Assembly: GCA_964498075.1 (NCBI GenBank)
Contig: CAZCGA010000010.1
Span: 9,247-73,246 of the forward strand
Direction of reading: 5' to 3'
DNA from: an uncultured Candidatus Binatia bacterium
GTDB lineage: Bacteria > Desulfobacterota > Binatia > HRBIN30
Length of the DNA stretch: 64,000 bases
A model generated the notes under the pieces. That model worked only from the letters and a program-made list of their open reading frames with translations, did not search any database and was not told the DNA's origin. A program made the position numbers and the translations under genes. Below, piece after piece: positions 48,111 through 64,000 of this stretch. Position 1 is the first letter of the stretch; each line of letters begins with the position of its first letter.

Positions 48111-48116
48111 ACGAGT

Positions 48117-49604: not shown

Positions 49605-49806
49605 ATGACCTTCAGCGAGTTCTTCCGTGAGGCGACGGGCTGCGAGCCGTTCGACTATCAGCGGCGGCTGGCGACGGAGGTGTGTGCCGAGGGCCGGCCC
49701 GAAGTCGCTGGCGATCAACGTGCCGATGGGTGCGGGGAAGACCGCCGCGGCGGTGCTCGCGTGGCTGTGGAATCGCCGCGGGCCGGAGGCTTTCTGCGAG
49801 TTGTAG
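49605..49806 (+). pseudogene. Frameshifted, truncated cas3 5' fragment (fragment B) retaining the helicase Walker A region
   Basis: Frame 1 reads MTFSEFFREATGCEPFDYQRRLATEVCAEGRP. After a +1 shift it continues KSLAINVPMGAGKTAAAVLAWLWNRRGPEAFCEL then stop. The intact Cas3 reads PFPWQERLASDV....VLALPTSAGKTAAIDIAVFAL. Confidence 0.6.
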
Positions 49807-51122: not shown

Positions 51123-52577
51123 ATGCTCATCCTCGCGCTTGAGTACCTGACGGGGCGTGCGGTCGCGACGCGCTTCAGCGAGCGCGACGAGCCGGAGTGG
51201 CCGCCACACCCGGCACGGTTGTTCTCCGCCATGGTGGCCGCAATGCATGAGACGGGGAACGATGCCGGCGAACGTGCCACCCTGCAATGGCTAGAACAGC
51301 AAGAGCCACCTGCGCTGTCGGTGAGTGTAGCGACACAGCGAACAACCGTATCCACCTTTGTGCCCGTCAACGATTCCAACGACCAATTCAAGAGAAAGAA
51401 GGATGGCATCCGACTCCTGCAGCAGATTTCCGCGACGTGTGAGTTGCGACGCGACAGGCAGGTGCGCTCCTTCCCGTCAGTGACACCCGAGAACGCAAGC
51501 GTTCACTTTGTGTGGGACCGGGCCGAGCCATCTGAGGGCGTCCGTGCCGCGCTTTCGGCACTTGCGGCCAAGGTGACCTATCTGGGCCACTCGTCCTCAC
51601 TAGTGTCGTTGCGGGTTTCCAACGATCGACCGGATGCTGCGCTGCTCCCAGACGATGCCGGAAGCCTTGCTCTGCGCGTTCCTGGTCCTGGGCAGTTGGA
51701 AGCGCTAGAGCGCGCCTTCCAGACTTACGCAAGGTCGGGTCAGCGGGTTCGTTTGCCCGCTCGTTTCCAGAAGTACCGACGTCAAGACAAGGACGCGCCG
51801 ATGCCGGCCGACGAAGTGCTTGGTGTCTTCGGAGACCTGATCGTGTTTCGGCGCGTCGAGGGACGGGCAGCCCCGCTCACCGCTGCGACAGCGGTTGCAA
51901 GTGCGATGAGAAATGCGGCGATGCGGAAGGCTATTCAACCTGTTCCAGAGGTCCTGAGTGGACACCGGCCCGATGGTACGCCCAGCGAGATTGCTCACGT
52001 TGCTTTCGTTGCCCTTGGTGACGTTGGTCACGACCATGCCGACGGCCACCTGATGGGTGTGGCGGCAGTGCTTCCGAGGAGCTTGGTCGGCGACGAGCGT
52101 CGCGCAGTGCTGCAGGCACTTGGGAGAATTGAGAAACTGACAATGGGTTCCCTTGGTGTTTGGGGAATGGAACGCGTAACTACCGAGGTAACGCAACGAG
52201 GGCTAACGACCACAACTTGGACGCGGTCCGCGAAACGTTGGGCAAGCGTCACGCCGGTTGTGCTCGACCGGTTCCCCAGCGAGCGATATGGGGCTGAGGC
52301 TGAAGATATCGTGGCGACGTCATGCGAACGCGCCGGACTGCCCCGGCCGATGGATGTTGTCGTCGCACCCGTATCGCTCATTCAGGGTGTTCCCCCGAGC
52401 CGCAGTTTTCAACCCCAACAGAAGCCCGGAATGCCGCGCCGTCTGCACGTACACGTCGTTCTCACATTTCCGACCGCCGTGCGTGGGCCGGTGTTGATCG
52501 GTGCGGGGCGCTACCGTGGCCTAGGCTTGTGCCGGCCATTGTCTGGCTCGTCCTCCGGCTCCGAACGCCAGCTATGA
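51123..52577 (+). CDS. csb2: Type I-G (I-U) CRISPR-associated protein Csb2 (Cas5/Cas6-like fusion)
   Basis: The ATG directly abuts the csb1 stop. The N-terminus MLILALEYLTGRAVATRFSERDEPEWPPHPARLFSAMVAA matches the characteristic Csb2 opening (GSU0054 family). Confidence 0.7.
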   Translation: MLILALEYLTGRAVATRFSERDEPEWPPHPARLFSAMVAAMHETGNDAGERATLQWLEQQEPPALSVSVATQRTTVSTFVPVNDSNDQFKRKKDGIRLLQQISATCELRRDRQVRSFPSVTPENASVHFVWDRAEPSEGVRAALSALAAKVTYLGHSSSLVSLRVSNDRPDAALLPDDAGSLALRVPGPGQLEALERAFQTYARSGQRVRLPARFQKYRRQDKDAPMPADEVLGVFGDLIVFRRVEGRAAPLTAATAVASAMRNAAMRKAIQPVPEVLSGHRPDGTPSEIAHVAFVALGDVGHDHADGHLMGVAAVLPRSLVGDERRAVLQALGRIEKLTMGSLGVWGMERVTTEVTQRGLTTTTWTRSAKRWASVTPVVLDRFPSERYGAEAEDIVATSCERAGLPRPMDVVVAPVSLIQGVPPSRSFQPQQKPGMPRRLHVHVVLTFPTAVRGPVLIGAGRYRGLGLCRPLSGSSSGSERQL

Positions 52578-55552
52578 AGCCCAGCGACTTCGGTCCGTTC
52601 TTCCGTCTCGTGTACGGCTACAACCCGTTCCCTTGGCAGGAGCGCCTAGCGTCGGATGTGATCACTCGCGGAACCTGGCCCTCGGTCCTCGCACTGCCCA
52701 CGAGCGCCGGAAAGACAGCAGCCATCGACATCGCCGTGTTTGCCCTGGCCTGTGAAGCGGACCGACCGCTTCAGCAGCGTCATGCCCCTTTACGAATCTT
52801 CTTCGTGATCGACCGCCGCATCGTGGTCGACGAGGCATATGCCCGTGCCCAGTTTCTGGCAGAGAAGCTTCGCGCCGCTCTCAAGGAACCCTCAGGCATC
52901 TTGCGCCAAGTGGCTGAGCGCCTGGTCGCACTCGGTGGAAGCGCCCCACTTCAGGTGTGTGCGATGCGTGGGGGGATGTACCGCGACACCACCTGGGCTC
53001 GCTCACCGGCTCAGCCGACCGTTTGTGTCTCAACGGTCGACCAAGTGGGCTCGCGCCTTTTGTTCCGGGGATACGGATTGGGTAGCGGCGTGTGCAACAC
53101 GCGCTCGATCCATGCTGGGCTAACGGGAAGTGATGCGCTCATCATTCTGGACGAAGCGCATCTGTCACAGCCGTTTCGCGAGACGCTTGGTGCGCTTGAG
53201 CGCTATCGCGCTTGGGCAGAGCGGTCGCTCTCCACACCTTGGCAAACCGTCCTCATGTCGGCCACCCCCGCACAAGGGGATGGTCTTTTCCGAGACGAAG
53301 CTGAGGATCGAGCGCACCCGGTCCTTGGAAAGCGCCTGACAGCGCGGAAGCGCGCCCGCCTAGTGCCCGTAACGTGCGAGATCGCGAAAGATAAGGACCC
53401 TGCTGAACGTAAGCGAGAGCTGGAACAGAAGAACCGCGACGTGCTTGTTGGCGCGATCTGTACACAGGTCATGCGTCTATGCGAGGACTTGCCCACCGGG
53501 AGTGTCGTCGGCATTGTCGTGAATCGCGTCGGCACCGCCCGGGGGGTATTCGATCGCCTTCGCGAGCAAGCGGATGCCGACACGATCTTGCTCACCGGCC
53601 GCACGCGGTCCTACGATCGGGACCGTCTGTTGGACCGGTGGCTCCCGCGAATGAAAGCAGGCCGTGACCGCACGGTGCAGGCGGAGCGCAGCCTCTTTGT
53701 CGTCGCCACGCAATGCATAGAAGTCGGAGCGAACCTTGATTTCGACGTCTTGGTGACTGAATGCGCCTCTCTGGATGCGCTGCGCCAACGCTTTGGACGA
53801 CTCGATCGGCTGGGCGAACTTGGGGATTCGCGCGCAGTGATCGTTGTTCGCAGCGACCACGCCAAGGCAACCGACGATGCAGTGTACGGATCAGCGCTCG
53901 CCGCAACGTGGAAATGGCTGAACGCTCAGGTGACGGTCCAGGGCCGAGGGAAAAACAAGGAATCGTTCGTTGACCTCGGAGTTGTGGCGAGCGCGGAACG
54001 ATTGCCGGAAGGCGACGTGCTCGCCAAGCTTTGCTCCCCGGCGCCCCACGCGCCGGTGATGCTTCCTGCCCATCTCGACATGTGGGTACAGACCAGCCCG
54101 GTGCCAGCACCAGATCCGGATGTGGCCCTCTTCCTCCATGGCCCAACATCGGGACCTCCGGACGTTCAGGTCGTCTGGCGAGGGGACTTGGTGGAGGGTC
54201 GAGAAGTAGAGTGGGCAGACGTCGTCGCGCTCGTTCCACCGTCGTCAGGTGAGGCGATGCCTATACCACTCTATGCCGCACGCGCCTGGCTGGCGAAGCC
54301 CGAGGCCACGGACGCGGCGAACCAGATGGCAGATGTCGAGGGGACGGAGGAGTCCGAGCTTGAGAACACACCCGGCGTCGGCCGGAACGCGCTCCGGTGG
54401 AGAGGGCTGGAGCAGAGCGAGATCATCCGCGCCGACGGGTTGCGCCCTGGTGACACCGTTGTGCTTCCCTCGACGTATGGCGGAGCAGATGAGTTTGGAT
54501 GGAATCCAACTTCAAGCGCTCTAGTCACAGATATTGGAGACGCAGTCTCGATGCGGCAAAGGTCGACTGCCGCACTACGCATCTACCCTACTGTGATTCG
54601 CGAATGGCTCCCCAAGCAGCCCGACGGTTCCTCCAACGCACTCTCGGCTGCCATTTACCGCCTCATCGACAGTATCGACACGGACGAGGAAGTGGGGGAG
54701 TCTGACGTCCTGGTTGCGATCTCCGAGAGTCTGGAGATCGCCGAGTCCGTGCGCCAGGCGGCGACGGTATTGGCCGCTGATCGCCGCTGTCGGCGCATGA
54801 TCTACCCAGACAGAAAAGGGCTTGCTTTCACAGCCAGTCGTCGGTTGCCATTGGCGGCGAGGGCGCTGGTTGATGCCGAGCTAGTTGCCCAGTTCACGGA
54901 CGAAGACGATGCCTCCTGCATGACCCGCAAGGTTACGCTGAGCGAGCATAGTTGCGGCGTAGTATCGTTCGCCCGGCAGTTCGCTACGGCGTGCCGATTA
55001 CCCAACGACCTCATCGACGATCTTGCGCTTGCGGCCTGGCTGCACGATGTTGGCAAGGCCGACCCTCGCTTTCAGGTAATGCTCCACGGTGGAGACGAAG
55101 TGGCCGCAGCGGTAGCTGGCGAGCCAGTTGCGAAGTCCGGCATGAATCCGCGCAACCGCGGAGCATACAGACTCGCACGCGAGCGCTCGTGCTACCCCGA
55201 CGGCGGGCGGCATGAATGCCAATCGCTTGCGCTCGTTGCCGCAAACGACGAAGCGCTTGCCAGCGCGCATGACCGGGACCTCGTCCTCCACCTCGTGGGC
55301 AGCCATCACGGCTGCGGACGCCCGTTCATGCCGGTGGTCAACGACCTATCTCCGGTCGATGTGTCGGTCCGGCATGGCGATATCCAGCTAGCGGCGAGCA
55401 GTGCTCACCGGTTGGAGCGGTTGGATTCGGGCGTGTCGGATCGATTCTGGCGGCTCGTCCGCCGATACGGCTGGTATGGCCTCGCGCATCTCGAAGCGAT
55501 TCTCCGCTTGGCCGACCATCGACGGTCAGAGCAAGAGGAGGAGCCACCATGA
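52574..55552 (+). CDS. cas3: Type I-G (I-U) Cas3 helicase-nuclease with C-terminal HD domain
   Basis: ATG 52574 overlaps the csb2 stop (ATGA). Motif I is LPTSAGKTAA and the DEAH box is LIILDEAHLS. The C-terminal HD is AAWLHDVGKADPRFQ...LVGSHHG...LADHRRS. Confidence 0.85.
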   Translation: MKPSDFGPFFRLVYGYNPFPWQERLASDVITRGTWPSVLALPTSAGKTAAIDIAVFALACEADRPLQQRHAPLRIFFVIDRRIVVDEAYARAQFLAEKLRAALKEPSGILRQVAERLVALGGSAPLQVCAMRGGMYRDTTWARSPAQPTVCVSTVDQVGSRLLFRGYGLGSGVCNTRSIHAGLTGSDALIILDEAHLSQPFRETLGALERYRAWAERSLSTPWQTVLMSATPAQGDGLFRDEAEDRAHPVLGKRLTARKRARLVPVTCEIAKDKDPAERKRELEQKNRDVLVGAICTQVMRLCEDLPTGSVVGIVVNRVGTARGVFDRLREQADADTILLTGRTRSYDRDRLLDRWLPRMKAGRDRTVQAERSLFVVATQCIEVGANLDFDVLVTECASLDALRQRFGRLDRLGELGDSRAVIVVRSDHAKATDDAVYGSALAATWKWLNAQVTVQGRGKNKESFVDLGVVASAERLPEGDVLAKLCSPAPHAPVMLPAHLDMWVQTSPVPAPDPDVALFLHGPTSGPPDVQVVWRGDLVEGREVEWADVVALVPPSSGEAMPIPLYAARAWLAKPEATDAANQMADVEGTEESELENTPGVGRNALRWRGLEQSEIIRADGLRPGDTVVLPSTYGGADEFGWNPTSSALVTDIGDAVSMRQRSTAALRIYPTVIREWLPKQPDGSSNALSAAIYRLIDSIDTDEEVGESDVLVAISESLEIAESVRQAATVLAADRRCRRMIYPDRKGLAFTASRRLPLAARALVDAELVAQFTDEDDASCMTRKVTLSEHSCGVVSFARQFATACRLPNDLIDDLALAAWLHDVGKADPRFQVMLHGGDEVAAAVAGEPVAKSGMNPRNRGAYRLARERSCYPDGGRHECQSLALVAANDEALASAHDRDLVLHLVGSHHGCGRPFMPVVNDLSPVDVSVRHGDIQLAASSAHRLERLDSGVSDRFWRLVRRYGWYGLAHLEAILRLADHRRSEQEEEPP

Positions 55553-56481
55553 ACCCCTTGGTGCTATCCGGCTTGAACGGAGGCGAGCCACTTGGTTTCC
55601 TTGCGGCACTAGGCACTCTTCGCCTCCTGGGTTCGAAGCGACCCGAACTCAAGCTGTCGTGGTGTTGGGAAGGCACATGGCAACCAGCCCTCACCGCCGG
55701 CTGTCTCTTAGACAAGAAAGGCGTCGCCACCGATCTCGTCGAAGCAATGCAGCAGACCCGGCGGCTGCATCTGACATTGGGTCCGACCATAAAGGTCGAC
55801 CCGGCGGCGTTCCGCGAGTTTGCCATGTGGGCCCAGGCGTGGGCGATAGCGCGCACCGATCGCGAATGGGCTGACTATTGTGTTGCCTTCGGCTCTGAGT
55901 GCGCAACTGCTCGCTCGACCGGTGACGTGAAGCCGACGGCGCTCGACATGACTTCCGGCCAACAAAATTTCCTTGAGAAAGCGGGCCGGCTGACGGCAGA
56001 ATTTGGCGGTATGGCAGCGAGCCAGGAGACCCGGCCCCCTATTGAGAAGATCGAGGAGACGCTCTTTGGTCCGTGGCAGTACAGAGACGTTCAGCACAGT
56101 CTCGGGTGGGACGCGGGCGCCGAGCGTCTATATGCACTCCGTGCGCGCGATCCATCCCCCGAAAAGATGTGCACGGTTTCCGGAGCTGTCCGTCTGGCGT
56201 TTGAAGCATTGCCGTTGTTCCCAACTGCGCCGATAGGGAAACGACTTGAGACACGTGGATTTGCAAGAGTGAACGGCGCGACGTTCTTTACGTGGCCGCT
56301 CTGGACCACTCCCATCGGCCTCGCGACAGTTGCCTCCGTTCTCGCGCTCCCTGAACTCACGCTGCCCCAGCCAAGTACGTCGCTTCGAGCGCGTGGCATA
56401 GCCTGCGTCTGTCGTGCCCGGCGAGGCGAGCTAGGCTCAAAAGGGTACGCGATATTTCGCGCCACAGAGGTTTGCTGGTAG
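55549..56481 (+). CDS. Small Cas8u2/Cas8g2 (Csb3-like) candidate, type I-G accessory/large-subunit protein
   Basis: The ATG overlaps the cas3 stop (ATGA). It is 310 aa (MNPLVLSGLNGGEPLGFLAALGTLRLL...). Its position directly after cas3 matches GSU0052-type genes. The assignment rests on context and weak recall only. Confidence 0.45.
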   Translation: MNPLVLSGLNGGEPLGFLAALGTLRLLGSKRPELKLSWCWEGTWQPALTAGCLLDKKGVATDLVEAMQQTRRLHLTLGPTIKVDPAAFREFAMWAQAWAIARTDREWADYCVAFGSECATARSTGDVKPTALDMTSGQQNFLEKAGRLTAEFGGMAASQETRPPIEKIEETLFGPWQYRDVQHSLGWDAGAERLYALRARDPSPEKMCTVSGAVRLAFEALPLFPTAPIGKRLETRGFARVNGATFFTWPLWTTPIGLATVASVLALPELTLPQPSTSLRARGIACVCRARRGELGSKGYAIFRATEVCW

Positions 56482-56514
56482 GTGCCATGTACCCGGCGGC
56501 AACTCCGGCATCAT

Positions 56515-56616
56515 CGGCCACTCCGCCCACTTCGGCCTCGGGCAGTTCAGACCGATTGACGATTGAACCATTGGGTCATTGCCGATTGAGCCATTGAGTG
56601 AGCATGAATGATCGCA
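56515..56616 (+). repeat. Composite junction repeat, copy a (conserved core + ~7-8-nt stutter)
   Basis: The core is CGGCCACTCCGCCCACTTCGGCCTCGGGCAGTTCAGACC (56515-56553). It is followed by GATTGAC GATTGAA CCATTGG GTCATTG CCGATTG AGCCATT GAG.... Confidence 0.75.
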
Positions 56617-56627
56617 GGGCGTGAACG

Positions 56628-56957
56628 GTGCCCATCGTAACCGCGAGAGCAATTCGATCGCTCGCCCGCGCCGGGCGCTACGCCTTGTCACTGCACGCTG
56701 AGCGTGAGCGCCAAGCCGATCGCATCACCATGGCTGAGCTCGAAACCGCGCTGTCGGCGGCCGAGATCATCGAGCGCTATCCGGACGATCCCCGTGGGCC
56801 GAGCTGCCTTGTGCTCGGTTACGCTGGGCGACGGCCGCTCCATGCTGTGTGCGCCGTGAAAGACCAGCCGCGTGAAATCCTGCTGATCACCGTGTATGAT
56901 CCGCGCCGGCAGCCGGAGCGATGGTCGGTGGACTTCCGCGCGAGGAGAAAGACATGA
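56628..56957 (+). CDS. DUF4258-family putative toxin
   Basis: GTG start. Sequence is ARAIRSLARAGRYALSLHAERERQADRITMAELETALSAAEIIERYPDDPRGPSCLVLGYAGRRPLHAVCAV...ILLITVYDP. Confidence 0.65.
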   Translation: MPIVTARAIRSLARAGRYALSLHAERERQADRITMAELETALSAAEIIERYPDDPRGPSCLVLGYAGRRPLHAVCAVKDQPREILLITVYDPRRQPERWSVDFRARRKT

Positions 56958-57202
56958 AGCGTCGCTACAACCGATGCCACTTCTGCGGCGGCCGCGTGAC
57001 CGAACGCGCGGTGGTCGTGGACTATCGCTGGGGCGACGACCTGCTCGCCATCATCGAGAACGTCCCCGCCGGCGTGTGCGAAGTCTGCGGCGAACGCTAC
57101 TTCAAAGCCGGCGTCGTGAAGGCGCTGGAACGTACCGCGCACGCCCGCACCAGGGCCCGCAACACCGTGACCGTTCCGGTGCGTCAGCTGAAAGTTGCGT
57201 GA
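56954..57202 (+). CDS. YgiT/MqsA-type zinc-ribbon antitoxin-like protein
   Basis: ATGA overlap with the upstream gene. Sequence is CHFCGGRVTERAVVVDYRWGDDLLAIIENVPAGVCEVCGERYF, with two CxxC pairs. Confidence 0.65.
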   Translation: MKRRYNRCHFCGGRVTERAVVVDYRWGDDLLAIIENVPAGVCEVCGERYFKAGVVKALERTAHARTRARNTVTVPVRQLKVA

Positions 57203-57222
57203 CTTCTTTGATCGCTCGCTCT

Positions 57223-57327
57223 CGGCCACTCCGCACTCGGGCAGTTCAGACCGGCAGACGATGAGCGATGAGAGATGAACGATTAAGGATGAGGGATGAG
57301 GGCGAACGATCGGGGATCAATGACGAC
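57223..57327 (+). repeat. Composite junction repeat, copy b
   Basis: The core is CGGCCACTCCGCACTCGGGCAGTTCAGACC, the same as copy a with a 9-nt internal deletion. It is followed by GATGAGC GATGAGA GATGAAC GATTAAG GATGAGG GATGAGG .... Confidence 0.75.
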
Positions 57328-57420
57328 GGACTCGGCAAAGCTCAGTGCCTTGCGACGGCGGAGATGCAGACTCTGGGACAATGGGCGTTGCTAGAACACC
57401 AATATTGGTGTAGCTCGTAG

Positions 57421-57774
57421 ATGGACTTCGCGATCGAGTTCTATGAGACGGCCAAGGGTGACAAGCCCGTCGAAGAGTTCCTCGATGCCCTCAAGGCGTC
57501 TGACCCGGACGTCCACGCGCGTGTGCTCGCCGGTCTGGCCCGGCTGCGCGAGCGCCGCAATCACCGCGAGCCGCTCTGCAAGGCCATCGGTCAGGGGCTT
57601 CTCGAATTGCGCGTCATCAGCCGTCTCAATGCCCGCGTGCTGTGGTTCTTCCAACGTGGCCAGCGCATCATCGTGGTGCACGGTGTGCGCCACAAGGGTC
57701 AGAAGCTGCCACCGGAAGCCCTGCGCATTGCGTTGGCGCGCAAAACCGACTGGGAACGGAGACAGGGTCGATGA
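57421..57774 (+). CDS. higB: RelE/HigB-type toxin (Gp49/DUF891-like)
   Basis: Sequence is IEFYETAKGDKPVEEFLDAL........GLLELRVISRLNARVLWFFQRGQRIIVVHGVRHKGQKLP. Confidence 0.7.
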   Translation: MDFAIEFYETAKGDKPVEEFLDALKASDPDVHARVLAGLARLRERRNHREPLCKAIGQGLLELRVISRLNARVLWFFQRGQRIIVVHGVRHKGQKLPPEALRIALARKTDWERRQGR

Positions 57775-58118
57775 AGAAGCCGACAAACTTTGATCGTTAC
57801 CTCGATCGCCAGCTGCACGACCCGGCGTTCGCCCGCCGCTATCGGCAGGCCGAGGAGGAGTGGAACGTGGCGCTCCAGCTGGCGGCGTTGCGCCAGGCGC
57901 GCAGTCTCACGCAGCGCGATGTGGCGCGCTTGGTGGGCACGACACAGCAGCAGATCAGCCGAATGGAGTCAGCCGAGTATCAGGGCCATTCACTCTCCAT
58001 GCTGCGGAAGGTGGTTGCCGCCCTCGGCGGCTCCGTCCGTCTGCGCATCGAACCTACGCGCGGCGCGCTCCATCCGTCACCCGCACCGACGCCCCGACGC
58101 GCGCGTCGTGCTGCCTGA
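57771..58118 (+). CDS. higA: XRE-HTH antitoxin (HigA-like)
   Basis: ATGA overlap with higB. Sequence is LRQARSLTQRDVARLVGTTQQQISRMESAEYQGHSLSMLRKVVAALGGSV. Confidence 0.7.
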   Translation: MKKPTNFDRYLDRQLHDPAFARRYRQAEEEWNVALQLAALRQARSLTQRDVARLVGTTQQQISRMESAEYQGHSLSMLRKVVAALGGSVRLRIEPTRGALHPSPAPTPRRARRAA

Positions 58119-58126
58119 CTCGCCCT

Positions 58127-58271
58127 CGGGCACTCCTGCCACTTCGGCCTCGGGCAGTTCGGCTGACTGGGAGGATGAGCGATGAACGATGAAGGATGAA
58201 CGATCAACACGCGACGATTCCGTGGGCAACCCTCATCCCTCATCGCTCATCTTTCATCGCTCCGTTCTTCA
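58127..58271 (+). repeat. Composite junction repeat, copy c (core + 14 in-register heptamers forming inverted arms)
   Basis: The core is GCACTCCTGCCACTTCGGCCTCGGGCAGTTC (58130-58160). The stutter is GATGAGC GATGAAC GATGAAG GATGAAC GATCAAC ACGCGAC GATTCCG TGGGCAA CCCTCAT CCCTCAT CGCTCAT CTTTCAT CGCTCCG TTCTTCA (58174-58271). Confidence 0.8.
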
Positions 58272-58425
58272 CCCGCCCACTTCGGCCTCGGGCAGCTCAA
58301 ACCACTGGGAGGATGAGGGATGAACCATCAAGGGATGAGGGATGAGCGGCAAGCGGCCCGCGATCAAGAATGAGGGATGACGGATGAACGTCCCGCATCG
58401 TTCATTGCCCATCTTCATCGCCTCG
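58272..58425 (+). repeat. Composite junction repeat, copy d
   Basis: The core is CGCCCACTTCGGCCTCGGGCAGCTCAAACC (58274-58303). The stutter is GATGAGG GATGAAC CATCAAG GGATGAG GGATGAG ... GAATGAG GGATGAC GGATGAA CGTCCCG CATCGTT CATTGCC CATCTTC. Confidence 0.8.
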
Positions 58426-58483
58426 TCGCGCTTGCGAGCGCCTGCCGACTGAGGTAGTGACTGTCACTACATCGGAGGTCTCG

Positions 58484-58762
58484 ATGCAACTCGGGCTGCG
58501 TGAAGCCAACCAGCATTTCTCCAAAGCCATCAAGGCGGTGAAGGCGGGCCAAGAGGTCATCCTCACCGAACGCGGCAAGCCGATCGCGGTGATCAAGCCC
58601 CTGCCGGCGGCCGACGACCTCGACGCGAAACTGGATCGCCTCGCGGCCGCAGGCGTGCTCCAACGTGCCACCAAACGCGGGCCGATGCCTCCATTCAAAC
58701 CGCGGCGGATCAAAGGGCCCCCGCTGTCGCAGACGATCAGCGAAGAACGCGATGAGCGGTGA
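58484..58762 (+). CDS. Phd/YefM-family antitoxin
   Basis: GGAGG lies 5 nt before ATG 58484. Sequence is MQLGLREANQHFSKAIKAVKAGQEVILTERGKPIAVIKP. Confidence 0.7.
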   Translation: MQLGLREANQHFSKAIKAVKAGQEVILTERGKPIAVIKPLPAADDLDAKLDRLAAAGVLQRATKRGPMPPFKPRRIKGPPLSQTISEERDER

Positions 58763-59198
58763 CCCCCGCCCCCCGGCCTACTTCGACAGCAGCGCGCTGG
58801 TCAAACGCTACGTCGCTGAGCCCGGCTCCGCGGCCGCTCGTGGATTCCTCATGGAGTATCGCGTCTTCTCCTCACGACTGGCGCCTCTCGAAATCACTGC
58901 GGCGGTTCGCCGGCGCCACCACGAGCGGCGCATATCGAGGGTCCAGTTTGCGGACATCCTTCAAGCCGTGCGCGACGATCAGTTGTATTGGGAGCTCGCC
59001 GATCTCGACCGAGGGATTCTCCGCTATGCCGAGGAACTGCTCCGATCGGCGAGCGTCCGCACGCTCGACGCCCTCCACGTCGGCTCGGCCTCTTCAACCC
59101 AAACGGCACTGGGCGTGGATCTTCCATTCGTGACTGCCGACGCGCGCCAGCGCGATGTTGCGCGGCAGGTAGGGCTGAAGGTGACGTGGGTCGAGTAA
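58752..59198 (+). CDS. vapC: PIN-domain toxin VapC
   Basis: It overlaps the antitoxin by 11 nt. Sequence is AYFDSSALVKRYVAEPGS...LDALHVGSA...FVTADARQ, showing the acidic PIN residues. Confidence 0.75.
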   Translation: MSGDPRPPAYFDSSALVKRYVAEPGSAAARGFLMEYRVFSSRLAPLEITAAVRRRHHERRISRVQFADILQAVRDDQLYWELADLDRGILRYAEELLRSASVRTLDALHVGSASSTQTALGVDLPFVTADARQRDVARQVGLKVTWVE

Positions 59199-59201
59199 GC
59201 C

Positions 59202-59507
59202 ATGCCCCGCAACACTTACCTCGTCTGCTACGACATCTCCGACGACAAACGCCTGAGGACGGTCTACAAGAACATGCGCGACTTCGGCGATCACCTGCAG
59301 TACTCGATCTTCGAGTGCCAGTTCACACCGACCGATCTGGTGCGCTGCCGCCACGTGCTCAGCGAGATCATCGATCATCGCGAGGATCAGGTCCTGTTCG
59401 TCGACCTCGGCCCCGTCGAGGGCCGCGGCGATCGCGTCATCACCGCGCTGGGACGCGCCTACTCGGTAATCGATAGCCCGTGCATCGTCGTGGATGGCGA
59501 ATCGTGA
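59202..59507 (+). CDS. cas2: CRISPR-associated endoribonuclease Cas2
   Basis: Sequence is MPRNTYLVCYDISDDKRLRTVYKNMRDFGDHLQYSIFEC...VLFVDLGP. Confidence 0.85.
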   Translation: MPRNTYLVCYDISDDKRLRTVYKNMRDFGDHLQYSIFECQFTPTDLVRCRHVLSEIIDHREDQVLFVDLGPVEGRGDRVITALGRAYSVIDSPCIVVDGES

Positions 59508-59618
59508 GTCGGGCTCGTGAATCGTGCGTGGGAGAATAGGCCCTGGTGGGACGGGCGTCGAGCCTGTCCCCGCTAGAGACGGCAGGCGAGGACGCCTGCC
59601 CCACTTGGGGAGGGAGTC

Positions 59619-61442
59619 ATGGCTGCTGATCCTCGACCGAACGCAAGCGGAATGCCCGAACGCGCGACGGCGCATCGGGCGCGGCGGCGCACCGTCGAGC
59701 TACCCGAGTACCTGCCGGCACGCATGCTCAACGAGTTCGTCTATTGCCCGCGCCTCTTCTTCTACGAATGGGTCGAAGGCGTCTTCGCGCACAGCGCCGA
59801 CACGGTCGAAGGAGCGCTGCGTCACGAAAAGCTGGAGACCAAGGCCGACCCGTTGCCACCCGCCAATGCGACGGCCGACGCGGCGATCCGCTCGCGCTCC
59901 GTCGAGCTGGCGAGCGACACGCACAAGCTGATCGCCAAGATCGATCTGGTGGAAGGTGAGGGCGGCGTGGTCAGCCCGGTCGACTACAAGCGCGGCGCGC
60001 CACGCGACGGCGACGACGGGCCCGAAGCCTGGCCGGCGGACCGCGCCCAGGTGTGCGCGCAGGCGCTGGTGCTGCGTGACAACGGCTACACGTGCAACGA
60101 AGCCGTCGTCTACTACAACGCTACGAAGCAACGCGTCCGCGTGCCCATCGACGACGCCCTCGTCGCCGAGACTCTGCAGGCCGTCGCCGCCGCACGGGCA
60201 CTCGCTGCGGCAGGCCGCATCCCGCCGCCGCTGATCGATAGCCCGAAGTGTCCGCGCTGCTCGCTGGTCACGATCTGTCTTCCCGACGAAACCGCGGCGT
60301 CGATGTCGTTGCCGGTCGAGGCGGTCGCGCAGCAGCTGTCGTTGTTCGCGCCGGCGGACGTGGTGGAGACGCGGCCGCTGGAGTCGAACCAACCGGCCGC
60401 CGATGCGGTGCGCCGGCTGGTCCCGGCGCGCGACGATTTGCGGCCGCTCTACGTCACCGGCAACGGTCTATCGGTGGGCAAGTCCGGCGAGGTCCTACAG
60501 GTCCGCGATCGGCAGAAGCTGGTGCAGGAGGCGCGCATCGGCGAGATCTCGCAGGTCAATCTCTTCGGCAACGTCGGGCTCACGGCGCCGGCGTTGCAGG
60601 GCCTGTGCTGGGCGGAGAAGCCCGTCGCGCACTTCTCGTACGGCGGCTGGTTCTACGGGCTGACGCAGGGGCTGGGATTGAAGAACGTCTTCCTGCGGCG
60701 CGACCAGTTCCGCCGCGCCGAGGAGTCGGGCTTCTGCCTGCAGGTGGCGCGGGACATCGTGGCGTCCAAGATCCGCAATCAGCGTACGTTGCTGCAGCGC
60801 AACCACGTCGAGCCGCCGGCGCCGGTGCTGCAACGCCTGCGGCGGTTGGCGCAGCAGGCCGGCGCGGCGACGGAGATGGACGAGCTGCTGGGCATCGAGG
60901 GCAGCGCGGCGCGGCTGTACTTCGAGCACTTCGGCGGCATGATCAAGGTGGAGGACGACAGCGAGCGGCCCGCCTTCGACTTCGCCCACCGCAACCGCCG
61001 GCCGCCGCGGGATCCGGTCAACGCGTTGTTGTCGTTTGCCTACAGCCTGCTGACCAAGGACCTGACGATCGTCTGCCACAGCATCGGCTTCGATCCGTTC
61101 ATCGGCTTCTATCATCAGCCGCGCTTCGGGCGGCCGGCCCTGGCGCTCGACCTGATGGAAGGCTTCCGCCCGCTGGTGGCCGACTCGGCGGTGCTTAGCG
61201 CGGTGAACACGCGGATGGTGAGCGCCGGCGATTTCATCTCCGTCGGCGGCGCCGTGGCGCTGACGCCCGCCGGCCGCAAGGGCTTCATCCGCGCCTACGA
61301 GCAGCGCATCGATACGCTGGTGACCCATCCGCTGTTCGGTTATCGTGTCAGCTACCGTCGAGTCTTGGAGATCCAAGCCCGCTTGCTGGCGCGGCTCGTG
61401 AGCGGTGAGCTGTTGCGCTATCCAGGGTTCGAGACGCGATAG
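59619..61442 (+). CDS. cas4-cas1: Cas4-Cas1 fusion protein
   Basis: The Cas4 part has FVYCPRLFFYEW, DLVE...VDYKRG and CPRCSLVTIC. The Cas1 part has EGSAARLYFEHF, RRPPRDPVNALLSFAYSLL and GFYHQPRFGRPALALDLMEGFRPLVAD. Confidence 0.9.
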   Translation: MAADPRPNASGMPERATAHRARRRTVELPEYLPARMLNEFVYCPRLFFYEWVEGVFAHSADTVEGALRHEKLETKADPLPPANATADAAIRSRSVELASDTHKLIAKIDLVEGEGGVVSPVDYKRGAPRDGDDGPEAWPADRAQVCAQALVLRDNGYTCNEAVVYYNATKQRVRVPIDDALVAETLQAVAAARALAAAGRIPPPLIDSPKCPRCSLVTICLPDETAASMSLPVEAVAQQLSLFAPADVVETRPLESNQPAADAVRRLVPARDDLRPLYVTGNGLSVGKSGEVLQVRDRQKLVQEARIGEISQVNLFGNVGLTAPALQGLCWAEKPVAHFSYGGWFYGLTQGLGLKNVFLRRDQFRRAEESGFCLQVARDIVASKIRNQRTLLQRNHVEPPAPVLQRLRRLAQQAGAATEMDELLGIEGSAARLYFEHFGGMIKVEDDSERPAFDFAHRNRRPPRDPVNALLSFAYSLLTKDLTIVCHSIGFDPFIGFYHQPRFGRPALALDLMEGFRPLVADSAVLSAVNTRMVSAGDFISVGGAVALTPAGRKGFIRAYEQRIDTLVTHPLFGYRVSYRRVLEIQARLLARLVSGELLRYPGFETR

Positions 61443-61675
61443 TTTGGGTGAAGGCTTGTTCGTGAATCGTGAATCAAAGGCGCCGGGCGCCGCTCGACAC
61501 GCGAGCGGCGCGGTGACGGCGAAACCACGGACACCGCTCGCGGCGGGAAAGGGCAACCGGGCCGGGCGCTTGCCGCCGTCTCGCGATCGCGATAGGGCGA
61601 TGGCCAGCGCTGCGACGATGATCGCTCGCAAACGTCCCTGCGGATCTTTGAAAACTCGGTGGTTGGAACGGTAGA
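61443..61675 (+). promoter_or_regulatory. CRISPR leader
   Basis: This is the 233-nt non-coding stretch between the cas4-cas1 stop and the first repeat. It starts with CGTGAAT CGTGAAT heptamers. The last ~35 nt are locally AT-richer (GGATCTTTGAAAACTCGGTGGTTGGAACGGTAGA). Confidence 0.6.
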
Positions 61676-63996
61676 CTCTCCGCGACCAATTGGTCGCGGC
61701 CCCATTGAAGCCCGGATACCCCGACAGTCACGCCGACGCCGACGGTGACACCTCTCCGCGACCAATTGGTCGCGGCCCCATTGAAGCCAGCAATCACCAT
61801 GTCTGGCTCAGTAGCCAGGGATATCTACTCTCCGCGACCAATTGGTCGCGGCCCCATTGAAGCCACCAACGAAGCTACCCGCCGTGGTCAGATTCGACAT
61901 GGCTCTCCGCGACCAATTGGTCGCGGCCCCATTGAAGCGTGAGGCGAATAGCGAGACCACACTGGGGTTCCTGCTGCTCTCCGCGACCAATTGGTCGCGG
62001 CCCCATTGAAGCTTGACCATTCGCATTGCGCCGAGCTTCGGCTCCGCGGCCTCTCCGCGACCAATTGGTCGCGGCCCCATTGAAGCGCATCATCAAGCAG
62101 CCCTATCGCCTCGGCCTGCTCCAGCTCTCCGCGACCAATTGGTCGCGGCCCCATTGAAGCGGCTCCGCGGCCGACGTGGCCAGCTCACGGATACACTCTC
62201 CGCGACCAATTGGTCGCGGCCCCATTGAAGCGCTTCTCCATCCAACACCTCCCTCGACTCAATGCTCCTCTCCGCGACCAATTGGTCGCGGCCCCATTGA
62301 AGCGTGCGGTGCCGTTCGCCGGGCAGGCCGCCCGTGCGTCACTCTCCGCGACCAATTGGTCGCGGCCCCATTGAAGCACTCTTCAGCGGCTGCGGTGGGA
62401 TTGACCTTGCGCTGGCTCTCCGCGACCAATTGGTCGCGGCCCCATTGAAGCGAGATTGCGCGAGATCGATCCTTCGTCGAAGATGACCCGCCTCTCCGCG
62501 ACCAATTGGTCGCGGCCCCATTGAAGCACCAATGAAATATGAGTCGTTGTCGGGAGCGCTTAGCTCTCCGCGACCAATTGGTCGCGGCCCCATTGAAGCC
62601 GACGGCAAGCTGAGGAAGGCACATCGAGTGTCGTGCTCTCCGCGACCAATTGGTCGCGGCCCCATTGAAGCGACGACTGGCGCGCAGACTGCCCGGCCGC
62701 GTGGCGACGACTCTCCGCGACCAATTGGTCGCGGCCCCATTGAAGCCACTCAGAATGACGATAATATCTGTACTATCTCGCGACTCTCCGCGACCAATTG
62801 GTCGCGGCCCCATTGAAGCACCATTCACTGGTCTCTGCATCCGCAGCGGGATCAGCTCTCCGCGACCAATTGGTCGCGGCCCCATTGAAGCCACTCTCCG
62901 GGCTCGACCCTCCGGCCCGAAGACGCCTCTCCGCGACCAATTGGTCGCGGCCCCATTGAAGCAGCAACACAGCCGCTGGCCAGATGCTCCCGACACATGG
63001 CTCTCCGCGACCAATTGGTCGCGGCCCCATTGAAGCCCCCTCAACCACCACAACGGTCTCACCGATATCGTCGACTCTCCGCGACCAATTGGTCGCGGCC
63101 CCATTGAAGCCGCGGCGACTACATCGAGCAGTCCGCGGCTAAAGGCTCTCCGCGACCAATTGGTCGCGGCCCCATTGAAGCCTGCATCGTGCTGCGCAGG
63201 CGGTCGACGTTGTGCGAAGTCCTCTCCGCGACCAATTGGTCGCGGCCCCATTGAAGCGACAAATGGTGCGGCAACCATAACAAGTACATGCTTGCCTCTC
63301 CGCGACCAATTGGTCGCGGCCCCATTGAAGCGAGCTCGGAAGCCGCGTCCTGCGCGAACTTATCCAGCTCCTCTCCGCGACCAATTGGTCGCGGCCCCAT
63401 TGAAGCGTGATTACTGATGCGAATGGCAATCCGAACACTGGCACCTCTCCGCGACCAATTGGTCGCGGCCCCATTGAAGCCCACACTTCTGGGGGACGTG
63501 TAAAGCCCGATGGGACGCCTCTCCGCGACCAATTGGTCGCGGCCCCATTGAAGCCGCGAAACGCCAGCCCTGCTCCCCCTGCACCACTGCGCCTCTCCGC
63601 GACCAATTGGTCGCGGCCCCATTGAAGCAGGTGCGCCAGGAGGTGCGGAACCGTGCTCAATGCGTAGCTCTCCGCGACCAATTGGTCGCGGCCCCATTGA
63701 AGCCCGACGCGCGGCCGTGCACCAAGGTAGGTCAACTCGCCTCTCCGCGACCAATTGGTCGCGGCCCCATTGAAGCGCGCACCCCCGGCACGGAATCACG
63801 GCGGAGTACTGCGTCTCTCCGCGACCAATTGGTCGCGGCCCCATTGAAGCGACGTGCTCGGTGCCGCCTACGATGCACGGATCAAGACTCTCCGCGACCA
63901 ATTGGTCGCGGCCCCATTGAAGCCTGCGGGGCCTCGTGCAGCGCAACGGGCATCATGGGTCTCTCCGCGACCAATTGGTCGCGGCCCCATTGAAGC
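61676..63996 (+). CRISPR. CRISPR array, 32 repeats in window (continues past base 64000)
   Basis: The repeat is CTCTCCGCGACCAATTGGTCGCGGCCCCATTGAAGC (36 bp) and contains the palindrome GCGACCAATTGGTCGC. All 32 copies look identical. Spacers are unique and 35-40 bp. The repeat ends in ATTGAAGC, so + is the transcribed sense and the leader is on the cas side. Confidence 0.97.
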
Positions 63997-64000
63997 GTGA

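Follow-up and report, generated by a model that had tools for sequence, protein, structure and literature searches.

Toxin-antitoxin cassettes and copies of a csb2 gene end within a type I-G cas locus

Described systems that resemble this locus

Toxin-antitoxin (TA) pairs are already known from cas loci. In the model type I-G locus of Thioalkalivibrio sulfidiphilus, two TA systems lie between Csb2 and Cas4-1 (PMC9638904, Fig. 1A legend), and vapBC pairs are interspersed in the cas cassettes of Sulfolobales (PMC4390879). The locus that we describe here is similar: as in those loci, type II TA pairs, sometimes in several copies, lie between interference and adaptation genes, and the T. sulfidiphilus pairs occupy the identical interval (PMC9638904). 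Locus maintenance (addiction) has been proposed as the role of the TA genes in the known loci, as we propose here. However, neither PMC4390879 nor PMC9638904 describes duplicated gene ends or repeats bounding the TA pairs. Within the literature that we searched, delimitation of TA pairs by csb2-end repeats appears to be undescribed, and ours is the first description of cassette-wise shuffling, empty sites, and orphan csb2 ends. A first-pass annotation of the window (the whole 64-kb stretch of DNA that we analysed) knew of nothing similar, which was too strong given the known TA pairs in cas loci.

Some cas operons are guarded by CreTA, a CRISPR-regulated RNA toxin-antitoxin (PMC9458426). This is also an addiction-type module within a type I cas operon, but it is an RNA pair under an ectopic CRISPR-like repeat, whereas the pairs in the window are protein type II systems, and the gap that holds them contains neither a sequence like the CRISPR repeat nor a match to a spacer.

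Integrons, including sedentary chromosomal integrons with TA cassettes and integrase-less attC clusters (CALINs), share several features with this locus: an ordered, co-oriented array of small, promoter-poor or autonomous cassettes; a partly palindromic, variable, recombination-type element close behind each cassette; a combinatorial cassette order; and TA cassettes that stabilise the array. The locus differs from integrons in that it has no IntI gene and no R''/R' (RYYYAAC/GTTRRRY) boxes, its hairpins are optional, its conserved part is a 40-nt coding gene end instead of a structure-defined attC, and its platform is a cas operon. Islands that integrate in the 3' ends of tRNA or protein genes restore the gene and leave direct-repeat att copies, several of them by tandem accretion. 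Here too, the direct repeats reproduce the 3' end of a gene, there are tandem arrays and empty sites, and the gene stays intact thanks to its proximal copy (in loci with type-A csb2, see below). But the cassettes here measure 0.6-1 kb and have no integrase gene, the repeats have ragged edges, and in several loci the proximal copy is an orphan behind an unrelated stop codon. The XerC/D-bounded (pdif) modules of Acinetobacter plasmids are similar: they too are small and discrete, are often TA pairs, lie between short recombination sites, and are shuffled from replicon to replicon (by the host recombinase). However, pdif sites are 28-bp dif-like sites with dyad arms and alternating orientation, while the sites here are direct, not dif-like, and chromosomal.

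The effector-cas2 gap and its toxin-antitoxin pairs

In the window, a gap of 2.7 kb (56482-59201) separates the stop of the last effector-side gene (56481) from the start of cas2 (59202; Table 1). The gap holds six small co-oriented ORFs that form three type II TA pairs, and all six are supported by HMMs. The central observation of the first-pass annotation, of a 2.7-kb gap with three co-oriented TA pairs (overlaps of ATGA in cassettes 1 and 2 and of 11 nt in cassette 3) and four copies of a core repeat, is thus confirmed. That annotation described the gene upstream of the gap as cas8u-like. It matches NF049934 (6.4e-71), the NCBIfam model for the type I-G "Cas3-extension family", and is not Cas8u or Csx17; the gene has no match in Pfam, and there is no csx17 in the window.

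Table 1. Features of the type I-G locus (positions in the window)
Feature	Position	Strand	Evidence or remark
Second cas3 gene, frameshifted 5' stub	49605..49803	+	left locus edge; N-terminus and Walker A (NVPMGAGKTAAA) over two frames
csb1 / cas7g	49866..51122	+	Pfam Cas_GSU0053, 1.3e-52
csb2 of the window itself (Cas5-Cas6 fusion)	51123..52577	+	TIGR02165, 2.5e-101
cas3g helicase-nuclease	52574..55552	+	TIGR02621, 2.9e-235
Type I-G "Cas3-extension family" gene	55549..56481	+	NF049934, 6.4e-71 (NCBIfam)
Core copy C1	56510..56555	+	nhmmer, 52 bits
Stutter, ~8-nt period, ATTGA type	56554..56612	+	TRF period 8 at 56562-56598; no significant fold
DUF4258 putative toxin, cassette 1	56628..56957	+	Pfam, 3.7e-20
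YgiT/MqsA-type zinc-ribbon putative antitoxin, cassette 1	56954..57202	+	TIGR03831, 3.6e-12
Core copy C2	57218..57254	+	18.6 bits; internal ~9-nt deletion
GATGARN heptamer stutter	57260..57302	+	TRF period 7, 6.1 copies
Perfect palindrome ACACCAATATTGGTGT	57396..57411		upstream of Gp49; identical in L059
Gp49/DUF891 RelE/HigB-like toxin, cassette 2	57421..57774	+	Pfam, 7.4e-16
XRE/HTH_37 HigA-like antitoxin, cassette 2	57771..58118	+	Pfam, 6.6e-10; HTH_37/HTH_3 about 1e-9
Core copy C3	58122..58162	+	nhmmer, 41.7 bits
Hairpin, arms of GATGARN / NYTCATC heptamers	58170..58263		inverted repeats; fold -56.7 kcal/mol, z = -2.8
Core copy C4	58269..58304	+	nhmmer, 33.4 bits
GATGARN stutter, partial fold-back	58309..58416		repeat analyses
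Palindrome GTAGTGACTGTCACTAC	58454..58470		upstream of Phd; start of homology to L010, L059
Phd/YefM antitoxin, cassette 3	58484..58762	+	Pfam, 5.8e-9; TIGR01552, 3.7e-8
PIN (VapC-like) toxin, cassette 3	58752..59198	+	Pfam, 1.5e-9; stop 3 nt before cas2
cas2	59202..59507	+	Pfam, 1.1e-18
cas4-cas1 fusion	59619..61442	+	Cas1 5e-84, Cas4 9e-15
CRISPR array	61676..64000	+	36-nt repeat, at least 32 repeats, continues beyond window end

The YgiT zinc finger of cassette 1, whose gene overlaps the toxin gene by ATGA, went undetected with Pfam alone. The DUF4258 gene is 74.5% identical (nucleotides) to its counterpart in L030, and the Gp49 gene of cassette 2 is 97.5% identical to that of L059. (Related loci are numbered with an L; all of them are metagenome contigs or MAGs.) A cassette is made up of an operator/promoter, two genes, and 3-46 nt of trailing sequence. 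At least two of the cassettes in the window have their own operator-like palindromes: the palindrome upstream of Gp49 is likely to be an antitoxin operator, and the one upstream of Phd probably is an operator as well. The variable region has its right edge at the ATG of cas2, where homology between loci begins.

A csb2 gene end at the cassette junctions

The repeat at the junctions has a core of ~40 nt. This core is no anonymous sequence but the final ~14 codons (LGHSAHFGLGQFRP) of a variant form of type I-G csb2 ("type-A"), which the first-pass annotation missed. Genes that pass TIGR02165, the model for Csb2, have the core as their 3' terminus (last 14 codons) in L003, L004, L008, L022, L028, L029, and L061, and in relatives the core either ends csb2 or comes after its stop. 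Because the core is a csb2 3' end, the element derives from a gene, as an attachment (att) site or a scar would, which changes its meaning. The window's own csb2 is of another kind: it lies 4 kb upstream of the core copies, its C-terminus (..GAGRYRGLGLCRPL..) is unlike the core, and the core profile finds no match in it.

All four copies in the window are on the + strand and all are orphans. C1 is an orphan csb2 3' end (..IIGHSAHFGLGQFRPIDD and stop) that is not in frame with the upstream gene, and over about 41 nt it matches the ends of the csb2 genes in L004, L008, and L028 without a difference. C2 and C3 start 15 and 3 nt past the YgiT and XRE stops, respectively. There is no gene between C3 and C4, so C4 is an "empty" junction unit. 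We found no further copies in the 64-kb window, and dinucleotide shuffles give an expectation of 0 matches; the junction element is a real composite repeat. The first-pass annotation placed one or two copies at every junction, which is correct except for the 3-nt PIN-cas2 junction, which has no repeat. A degenerate core that it suggested at 59595-59610 was not detected by the core profile.

It also described a GATGARN stutter that folds back on itself after each core. Runs of three GATGARN heptamers do occur at 57260-57302 and 58174-58387, and nowhere else in the window (13 found versus 0.03 expected), but C1 is followed by an ~8-nt ATTGA-type stutter, which is also found in L003 and L060. Significant folds are limited to the C3 unit (z = -2.8) and the third junction as a whole (from C3 to C4, 58119-58483, z = -3.1). 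C1, C2, and C4 taken singly are not followed by a significant fold (C4 with its stutter, 58270-58419, has z = +0.96). Stutter hairpins of other short-period types are present in other intergenic DNA of the window (48113-48190, 49083-49113, and 41160-41200).

These other hairpins would fit a genome-wide REP- or MITE-like repeat that is dense here by chance, but for the core, this explanation is effectively refuted. The other ~61 kb of the window has 0 core copies. Scans of sequence collections found true matches in 6 of 185,579 species genomes and in about 12 metagenome contigs; all of these are inside type I-G loci, nearly always adjoining TA genes, and there were none in viral contigs or plasmids. 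(The scans used an exact 22-mer, so this sample is biased towards well-preserved cores.) Likewise, in 457 kb of retrieved DNA, three-heptamer GATGARN runs lie only within these cas loci.

That confinement could instead reflect a cis-acting regulatory element, in which the core with its stutter or hairpin terminates, insulates, or processes transcripts between the effector, cassette, and adaptation genes. With a TGA every 7 nt, the stutter places stops in all three frames every 21 nt; together with a stabilising hairpin, such an element might be needed by the cassettes, and its copies would have spread for this reason. The stable C3 hairpin and the conservation of non-coding proximal cores are consistent with this, as is a similar stutter after the stops of cas2 and cas4-cas1 and on both sides of an inserted gene in L008. 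However, we found no canonical or intrinsic terminators in the gap (0 versus 1.7 expected) and no Rfam match. Hairpins follow only some cores and are absent or not significant after most, collinear arrays differ in the type of stutter, and internal cores decay. Nor does a regulatory role account for the core's identity with the coding end of csb2, and we consider it very unlikely.

Related loci and the origin of the array

Across loci, the interval between csb2 or the effector genes and cas2 contains at least 10 TA families. DUF4258-YgiT is found in the window and L030 (74%); Phd-PIN in the window, L010, and L059; Gp49-XRE in the window, L059/60, and L061; DUF2283 in L019, L021, and L030; DUF433-DUF5615 in L004 and L028; and nucleotidyltransferase (NTase) pairs in L012 and L029. 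HicAB, MazF, and others are also among the core-separated pairs of relatives. Multi-core arrays, always on the + strand, are present in L004, L008, L010, L021 (three cores), L029, L030, L059/60, and L061-64, while the csb2-cas2 junction is empty in five loci (L022, L045, L052, L054, and L057). Because relatives have different combinations of cassettes and five empty junctions, the gap is a recurrent cassette hotspot. The comparison shows that the effector-cas2 interval in this type I-G family gains, loses, and exchanges autonomous TA cassettes, and that the portable junction that separates them is a copy of the ~40-nt type-A csb2 3' end with a fast-evolving 7-8-nt stutter. The first-pass interpretation is partly supported: the multi-core, differently filled, and empty sites favour its array built at a repeated recombination site, and the repeat is not genome-wide, while some of its labels and details were wrong, as described above. 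In function, it suggested that the cassettes could addict the cell to the locus, serve as abortive-infection back-up, or insulate transcription.

These loci are mosaics. Along the array, the window and L059 are between 61% and 97.5% identical, which is typical of frequent homologous exchange. Junction units vary in number between close relatives (C3-hairpin-C4 in the window versus a single core in L059), and L021 retains the C3-hairpin-C4 unit at 84% conservation with other genes to its left and right. Between L007 and L012, homology ends directly after the core. In L004, L008, and L028, the bodies of csb2 are saturated (third-codon-position identity of about 0.25-0.3 and no blastn hit), versus about 91-100% identity in the last ~56 nt of the gene and 78-86% in cas2 and cas4-cas1.

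We propose that cassettes accumulate at this hotspot by homologous recombination on portable csb2-end junctions and are retained by TA addiction. This is the most likely mechanism, in our judgement with somewhat better than even chances. Junction copies would be direct-repeat homology that ordinary (RecA-type) recombination could use, between sister copies or between related loci, to swap a cassette lying between two junctions, to loop out a cassette as a one-junction circle that re-inserts at any other junction, or to expand or contract the number of junction units; addiction would make cassette gains hard to lose. In the window, an original canonical module (cas3, csx17, csb1, and type-A csb2) was probably replaced by csb1, csb2, cas3g, and cas3-extension. 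This would have left the cas3 5' stub at the left edge and, at the right edge, the last 14 codons of the old csb2, so that C1 is most likely a scar of the replaced effector module. C2 to C4 would mark later cassette or junction events. Module replacement is suggested by the cas3 stub that the window shares with L061 (76% identity over 152 nt) and by an identical Cas2 protein beside different effector modules in L053 and L054. The csb2-end core, the multi-core arrays, the differing cassette combinations, the empty sites, the mosaic identity, and the lack of any integrase, transposase, or recombinase gene in or beside any array (partly judged by eye) argue for recombination. Neither a population-level insertion/deletion pair nor a circular intermediate was observed among the relatives.

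Several observations count against recombination on the junctions. A 40-nt core is a short substrate for RecA-type recombination, and the latest exchange tract between the window and L059 ends within the XRE gene, so the cores are not the sole crossover points. Recombination also does not explain how at least 10 unrelated TA pairs first acquired a csb2-end copy just a few nucleotides past their stops, or why there are no orphans with more than ~26 nt upstream of CCACTTCGG. And the effector-adjacent orphans are near-consensus despite being non-coding, which hints at selection on the site or directed insertion there.

Directed insertion would be expected from a dedicated integron- or att-like platform with the csb2 3' end as the attachment site, which we consider rather unlikely. 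Small circular TA cassettes with a ~45-nt site would be inserted by a recombinase acting in trans or, in the boldest version, by Cas4-Cas1-Cas2, which would duplicate the target as it does the CRISPR repeat. The csb2-proximal copy would be the entry point of new cassettes, and older copies would decay distally. Consistent with this, the cores have a uniform orientation and a bounded extent; orphans, including those in relatives, abut the preceding cassette (starting 3-44 nt past the TA stop) or lie right behind the stops of unrelated genes (type-B csb2, cas3-extension, MazF); copies that flank one cassette are the most alike (C1/C2 and C3/C4); and empty sites exist. In every array, preservation is best in the effector-proximal copy (with a gradient of 42 > 29 > 20 > 3 bits in L061), which recalls integrons, where insertion is attI-proximal, or CRISPR arrays, whose terminal repeats are degenerate, but part of this gradient is an artefact of a profile that was built on proximal copies. 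Also, no array has an integrase or transposase in or beside it, and by inspection the core lacks dyad symmetry, GTTRRRY/RYYYAAC boxes, and dif-like arms. The core is also unlike the CRISPR repeat. Its left edges are ragged (-3 to -26 nt), only some cores have hairpins, and the cassette adjoining cas2 often has no distal core (the window, L010, and L028).

Alternatively, the orphan cores could be passive scars, left over from unrelated illegitimate or homology-facilitated events that imported I-G DNA with a bit of the csb2 end, and play no part in later rearrangements. TA pairs would build up simply because insertions are tolerated at this site and TA modules are not easily lost. This explains C1 well, as a scar of module replacement, and it fits with exchange tracts that ignore core boundaries, with internal copies that decay by deletions and mismatches, and with cassettes or other cargo that lack any orphan core (L003, L028, L036-43, and L046-51). 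However, random breaks in a 1.5-kb gene should sometimes leave long stubs, and all of the ~16 orphans have at most 26 nt upstream of CCACTTCGG. Passive scars also do not account for gene-free tandem units (C3-C4 in the window, the three cores of L021) whose number differs between close relatives, for a junction unit that is conserved while both adjoining cassettes differ, or for non-coding proximal copies that are nearly the same in loci with cassettes of only about 74% identity. We therefore regard this explanation as improbable, and favour recombination on the csb2-end junctions.

Because related loci of other bacteria show the same pattern, this spot gains and swaps cassettes repeatedly. 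We predict that the cassettes are likely to stabilise the adaptation side of the locus.

Predicted toxin-antitoxin pairs in a type I-G CRISPR-Cas locus

The stretch from 49.8 to 64 kb of the window is a CRISPR-Cas locus of type I-G, with csb1, csb2, cas3g, cas2, cas4-cas1, and a CRISPR array all present. Just upstream of cas2 are six co-oriented small ORFs that form three overlapping pairs (ATGA overlaps at 56954 and 57771, and an 11-nt overlap at 58752). Family HMMs support every one of these ORFs, and the matches to the DUF4258, Gp49/RelE-like, and PIN toxins all exceed the Pfam cut-offs. Given the overlaps and the toxin and antitoxin families, we agree with the first-pass annotation that these are probably three type II toxin-antitoxin (TA) pairs. 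Each cassette comprises two small TA genes only, without an integrase gene. An exact-protein look-up gave no identical record for the Gp49 or DUF4258 protein.

Features of the type I-G locus in the window
Feature	Coordinates	Strand	Description
csb1/cas7g	49866-51122
csb2	51123-52577
cas3g	52574-55552
Cas3-extension gene	55549-56481		NCBIfam 'type I-G Cas3-extension family'
Gap with TA pairs	56482-59201		2.7 kb, between Cas3-extension gene and cas2
Core C1	56510-56555	+
Cassette 1			DUF4258 (3.7e-20) + YgiT-type zinc finger (TIGR03831, 3.6e-12)
Core C2	57218-57254	+	~9-nt deletion
Cassette 2			Gp49/DUF891, RelE/HigB-like (7.4e-16) + XRE helix-turn-helix, HTH_37/HTH_3 (about 1e-9)
Core C3	58122-58162	+
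Core C4	58269-58304	+
Cassette 3			Phd/YefM (5.8e-9) + PIN (1.5e-9)
cas2	59202-59507
cas4-cas1 fusion	59619-61442
CRISPR array	from 61676		at least 32 repeats of 36 nt

The palindrome ACACCAATATTGGTGT (57396-57411), just before the Gp49 start, is operator-like and is kept in the related locus L059. Another operator-like palindrome, GTAGTGACnGTCACTAC (58454-58470), lies just before the Phd start and is kept in L059 and L010. (L numbers denote related type I-G loci.) Because homology between loci begins exactly at these two palindromes, each cassette probably carries its own autoregulated promoter.

The gene upstream of the gap had been labeled as Cas8u-like, but NCBIfam places it in the Cas3-extension family and not in Cas8u/Csx17. 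For the large subunit (Cas8g/Csx17), there is no csx17 within the window, and the Cas3-extension family gene follows cas3g instead. Upstream of csb1, a cas3 stub and ORFs that look housekeeping-like are all that we saw. In the relatives L010, L046, and L057, csx17 is present. The resulting effector order at 49866-56481 (csb1-csb2-cas3g-Cas3-extension, without csx17/cas8g) is unusual. A search found 3202 homologs of Cas2 at E <= 1e-20, and Cas2 neighbors carry the labels Binataceae, Terriglobales, Acidobacteriota, and Vicinamibacterales.

The junction repeat is derived from the end of csb2

Four copies of a core of about 40 nt, all on the + strand, lie in a 1.8-kb stretch inside the gap. Shuffled sequences are expected to give zero matches, and no copy lies in the remaining ~61 kb, so the repeat is real. 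It was also described as present at every junction; this holds ahead of each of the three cassettes (C1-C4), but there is no repeat between the PIN gene and cas2. A degenerate core proposed at 59595-59610 is not detected by the core profile.

We scanned one genome per species (185,579 species) for the 22-mer CCACTTCGGCCTCGGGCAGYTC, an exact pattern that favors well-preserved cores, and obtained 11 loci. Five are unrelated coding matches, mostly to the CTC variant, and the other six share an extended context. In all six, the core is in frame and forms the final codons of a gene of ~500 amino acids, whose product ends with ..P-V-x-G-P-I-A-L-G-H-S-A-H-F-G-L-G-Q-F-R-P-stop. These genes score above the cut-off of the Csb2 equivalog TIGR02165, so the core is the 3' end (the last 14 codons) of one variant of csb2, which we call type A. 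In Csb2, the nuclease that processes crRNA is the C-terminal domain (PMC9638904), and we infer that the core encodes the glycine-rich loop at the C-terminus of the Cas6-like domain. L006 has a Cas3-extension-like gene and, after it, a stand-alone C-terminal half of Csb2 (300 amino acids) with the core at its end.

In the window, csb2 itself has another ending (..GAGRYRGLGLCRPL..) and is located 4 kb upstream, so all four cores there are orphans, that is, copies that do not end a csb2. The frame of C1 also differs from that of the preceding gene. Orphans extend at most about 26 nt upstream of CCACTTCGG, and none of them keeps the adjacent P-V-x-G-P motif.

A scan of metagenomes added about 12 true core loci. 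A scan of viral contigs gave 0 matches, and blastn of the whole gap against plasmids gave no match, so these viral and plasmid searches found no vehicle for the cassettes. The concern that the core might be a REP-like element scattered across genomes did not materialize: the true loci are all type I-G, the collection scans match only such loci, and the rest of the window is empty, which excludes, for the core, a genome-wide REP- or MITE-like repeat. Unrelated to the TA array, long tracts of 6/12/18-nt periodic repeats at 1670-2760 and 20560-24800 (such as CGACGCCGACGG, with as many as about 36 copies) probably code for acidic proteins that are rich in glycine and highly repetitive.

The cores are followed by short-period tracts, or stutters. 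The first-pass annotation described a GATGARN stutter that folds back after each core. GATGARN heptamers do follow C2, C3, and C4, but the tract after C1 is of an ATTGA type with a period of ~8 nt; and among single units, only that of C3 is significantly stable when folded (z = -2.8). The interval from C3 to C4, which makes up the whole third junction, has z = -3.1. Across loci, just 2 of 13 folded junctions have z < -2, so we rejected the hairpin as an obligatory part of the junction. In L030, whose array is otherwise collinear, the stutter at the position after C1 is GATGARG-type instead of ATTGA-type, and L008 and L061 share a third type (CGTGAGT + GGTCAAAGG). Within 457 kb of fetched DNA, GATGARN x3 is confined to these cas loci, where it also occurs after cas2, before cas4-cas1, and once upstream of the cas3 match of L026. 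Stutters of other types, with periods of 6-8 nt, are found in intergenic DNA of the window at 41160-41200, 48113-48190, 49083-49113, 59505-59530, and 61458-61476, and some of these directly follow the stops of cas2 and cas4-cas1. The one at 48113-48190 has inverted heptamer arms (GGTTnCT / GAAACCn) and looks hairpin-like. In L008 (oriented positions 5397-5858) and L025, cas2 and cas4-cas1 are separated by an inserted gene for a four-helix bundle (23S_rRNA_IVP, Pfam 2e-16). This gene has GATGARN-type stutter at its flanks and no core, so the stutter marks insertion points even without a copy of the csb2 end.

Cassette exchange among related loci

We ran the core profile on the core loci and on loci anchored on homologs of Cas2 or Gp49. 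These relatives are metagenome contigs or MAGs throughout, and TA identities were checked with Pfam or taken from precomputed Pfam results.

Array maps of related loci (C, core copy; csb2A, type-A csb2; NTase, nucleotidyltransferase)
Locus	Gene order
L004	csb2A(C) / 105 aa + DUF2283 / C / DUF433 + DUF5615 / cas2
L028	as L004 minus first cassette
L008	csb2A(C) / partial C / NTase (DUF6036/AbiEii) + 86 aa / C / cas2
L010	csx17-csb1-csb2 / orphan C + hairpin / DUF4258 + Zn ribbon / C + hairpin / Phd + PIN / cas2
L030	csb2 / orphan C / DUF4258 + YgiT / C / further cassettes
L061-64	split csb2A(C) / VapB-like + PIN / C / Gp49 + XRE / C / NTase pair / C remnant / cas2
L059/60	C / Gp49 + XRE / C / Phd + PIN / cas2
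L007	csb2 / orphan C / HicAB, opposite strand / cas4-cas1
L019	MazF / C / DUF2283 .. cas2

Across the mapped loci, every core is on the cas strand. An orphan core starts 3-44 nt past the stop codon of the preceding cassette, and the next cassette starts 70-280 nt further, beyond the stutter and an operator-like palindrome. The csb2-cas2 junction is empty in five loci (L022, L045, L052, L054, and L057); in L022, the core of a type-A csb2 is followed by cas2 after 17 nt. Some loci have a cassette or other cargo without an orphan core (L003, L028, L036-43, and L046-51). Related type I-G loci, which the first-pass annotation proposed to compare, have both empty and differently filled sites. The interval is a recurrent, variable cassette site.

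Cassettes and junctions act as separate units, and the same cassette is found with different neighbors. Cassette 1 of the window and both of its cores are collinear with L030 (74% identity over 799 nt), beyond which the arrays diverge. Phd-PIN-cas2 is common to the window, L010, and L059; Gp49-XRE is also present in L059/60 (97.5% nucleotide identity for Gp49) and in L061 (77%); and DUF2283, DUF4258'-Zn', and NTase pairs connect L019, L021, L030, L010, L029, and L012. The C3-hairpin-C4 unit is 84% identical to a unit in L021 whose flanking genes differ on both sides. Where the window has this unit, its close relative L059 has a single core, so junction units expand and contract.

Identity between the window and L059 also varies from gene to gene (Gp49 97.5%, XRE 87%, Phd 80%, PIN 61%, cas2 89%, and cas4-cas1 75%), and the near-identical tract terminates within the XRE gene. 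Since this newest tract ends inside a gene and homology starts at the palindromes, the idea that cassette boundaries are exactly the cores is only partly true. To the right of the variable region, the loci become homologous from the cas2 ATG onward. By these comparisons, exchange is frequent and not restricted to the cores. The PIN toxins (window 58752-59198 and L059 1208-1645), only 61% identical as DNA, are 44% identical as proteins, so the toxin allele seems to have been swapped inside an otherwise conserved Phd-PIN cassette.

The modules have sharply different histories. In L004, L008, and L028, the csb2 bodies are saturated (identity at third codon positions is about 0.25-0.3, even inside a conserved motif, with no blastn match); the final ~56 nt are about 91-100% identical; and cas2 and cas4-cas1 are 78-86% identical. 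Third codon positions were analyzed in unforced flanks only: we dropped their identity within the 22-mer as a sign of DNA-level selection, because the scan pattern forces it. Comparison of L007 with L012 gives 44/46 matching positions in the non-coding orphan core and 70-86% identity in the adjoining csb2; there is no homology directly past the core.

The effector module has a history of its own. Just before csb1 in the window is the frameshifted 5' stub of a second cas3 (49605-49803), with its Walker A motif NVPMGAGKTAAA split over two frames. This stub is 76% identical over 152 nt to a cas3 stub in L061 (2034-2185), which is followed by a DUF4258+DUF2283 pair and then by the split type-A csb2 with its in-gene core. 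The simplest reading is that the present effector module took the place of an ancestral canonical one that ended in a type-A csb2; the remnants would be the cas3 stub at the left and, at the right, C1 as the final 14 codons of the former csb2. L053 and L054 encode identical Cas2 proteins beside entirely different effector modules: L053 has the window-type module (csb1-csb2-cas3g-Cas3-extension), divergently oriented relative to cas2, and L054 has a canonical csb2 adjoining cas2 with a 9-nt spacer. We take this as direct evidence that modules have very recently been re-assorted at the upstream boundary of cas2. L061/L062 (about 2000-8300) have a decaying effector module, in which cas3 is a stub, csb2 is split, and csx17 and csb1 are missing; no CRISPR array is seen within 1.5 kb downstream. 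Five TA-type cassettes, cas2, and cas4-cas1 are retained, with housekeeping genes on the flanks. This pattern would fit a role of TA cassettes in stabilizing the adaptation side of the locus.

Possible mechanisms and significance

vapBC pairs are found within the cas cassettes of Sulfolobales (PMC4390879), and TA pairs are generally associated with archaeal CRISPR systems (PMC3973734). In the type I-G locus of T. sulfidiphilus, two TA systems and an xpf-like gene lie between Csb2 and Cas4-1 (PMC9638904, Fig. 1A legend), so the position itself is not new, and the first-pass statement that nothing of the kind had been described was too broad. It does stand for the repeats: none of these three papers reports delimiting repeats, and our full-text literature searches found no description of csb2-end duplications.

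Judged from its sequence, the array resembles in function an integron cassette array or tandem islands at the 3' end of a gene. With neither an integrase nor attC boxes, it falls outside the definition of both classes. At all inspected junctions, boxes of the R'' (RYYYAAC) and R' (GTTRRRY) type are absent, and a palindrome follows some cores only. As in 3'-end integrative elements, direct repeats duplicate the end of the target gene and relatives have empty target sites, but the window's cassettes encode no integrase. pdif/Xer modules have 28-bp dif-like sites with XerC/XerD arms in alternating orientation, whereas the cores are all direct and lack dyad arms. On inspection we ruled out the core as an attC or dif site. 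We also ruled out a CreTA-type guard: the best local match of the CRISPR repeat to the gap scores below the shuffle mean, no copy with <=3 mismatches occurs outside the array, and no spacer matches the gap or the relatives.

We consider it fairly probable that the junction copies serve as portable direct-repeat homology for homologous recombination, with TA addiction biasing the outcome towards accumulation. Ordinary recombination between copies could swap cassettes, loop a cassette out and re-insert it, or alter the number of junction units, and addiction would tilt the balance towards gain. Three observations are left unexplained: a copy of the csb2 end lies a few nt past the stop of at least 10 unrelated TA pairs; the upstream extent of every orphan is short; and the effector-proximal core is near-consensus even if non-coding, while distal copies decay (in L061, 42 > 29 > 20 > 3 bits), a gradient that may partly stem from the construction of the profile. 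On account of these points, a dedicated site-specific mechanism stays a candidate. We think it unlikely, as no recombinase gene, IntI-type or other, was found among the called genes of any array locus (the flanks in the window look housekeeping-like by eye) and the core has no dyad symmetry or attC or dif features. That the copies are passive scars is a weaker reading than the site-specific one and also unlikely.

We also entertain, as quite improbable, that the csb2 3' end is a true attachment site for an integron-like cassette-capture system that is tied to the adaptation modules of type I-G loci and uses an integrase in trans. The copy nearest csb2 would be the entry point for new cassettes, and the older junctions, in the direction of cas2, would be in decay. 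In the boldest form, Cas4-Cas1-Cas2 would duplicate its target when inserting kilobase-sized DNA, and the TA array would be a "giant-spacer" analog of the CRISPR array. Searches of the window and the gap with Rfam gave nothing at gathering score (sub-threshold matches were miRNA/snoRNA noise), a terminator scan found no intrinsic terminators, and a promoter consensus scan found one weak promoter-like site, inside an ORF. We give very little credence to a purely regulatory element, which is also weaker than the site-specific reading.

For years, TA pairs in cas loci have been recorded, but only as passengers scattered among the genes. The pairs described here make up an ordered array, delimited by repeats and shuffled combinatorially, at a single defined junction, and the delimiting repeat is a piece of a cas gene. 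The breakpoints, at Csb2 codon -14 and at the cas2 ATG, provide a sequence-level handle on the re-assortment of effector and adaptation modules, and the docking site can be mined for new TA, defense, or anti-defense cargo in thousands of related loci. The addiction hypothesis becomes testable, as the effector module of L061 is in decay, with the adaptation genes and five cassettes still in place. If the junction is a site-specific target, it would represent a new cassette-recombination system.
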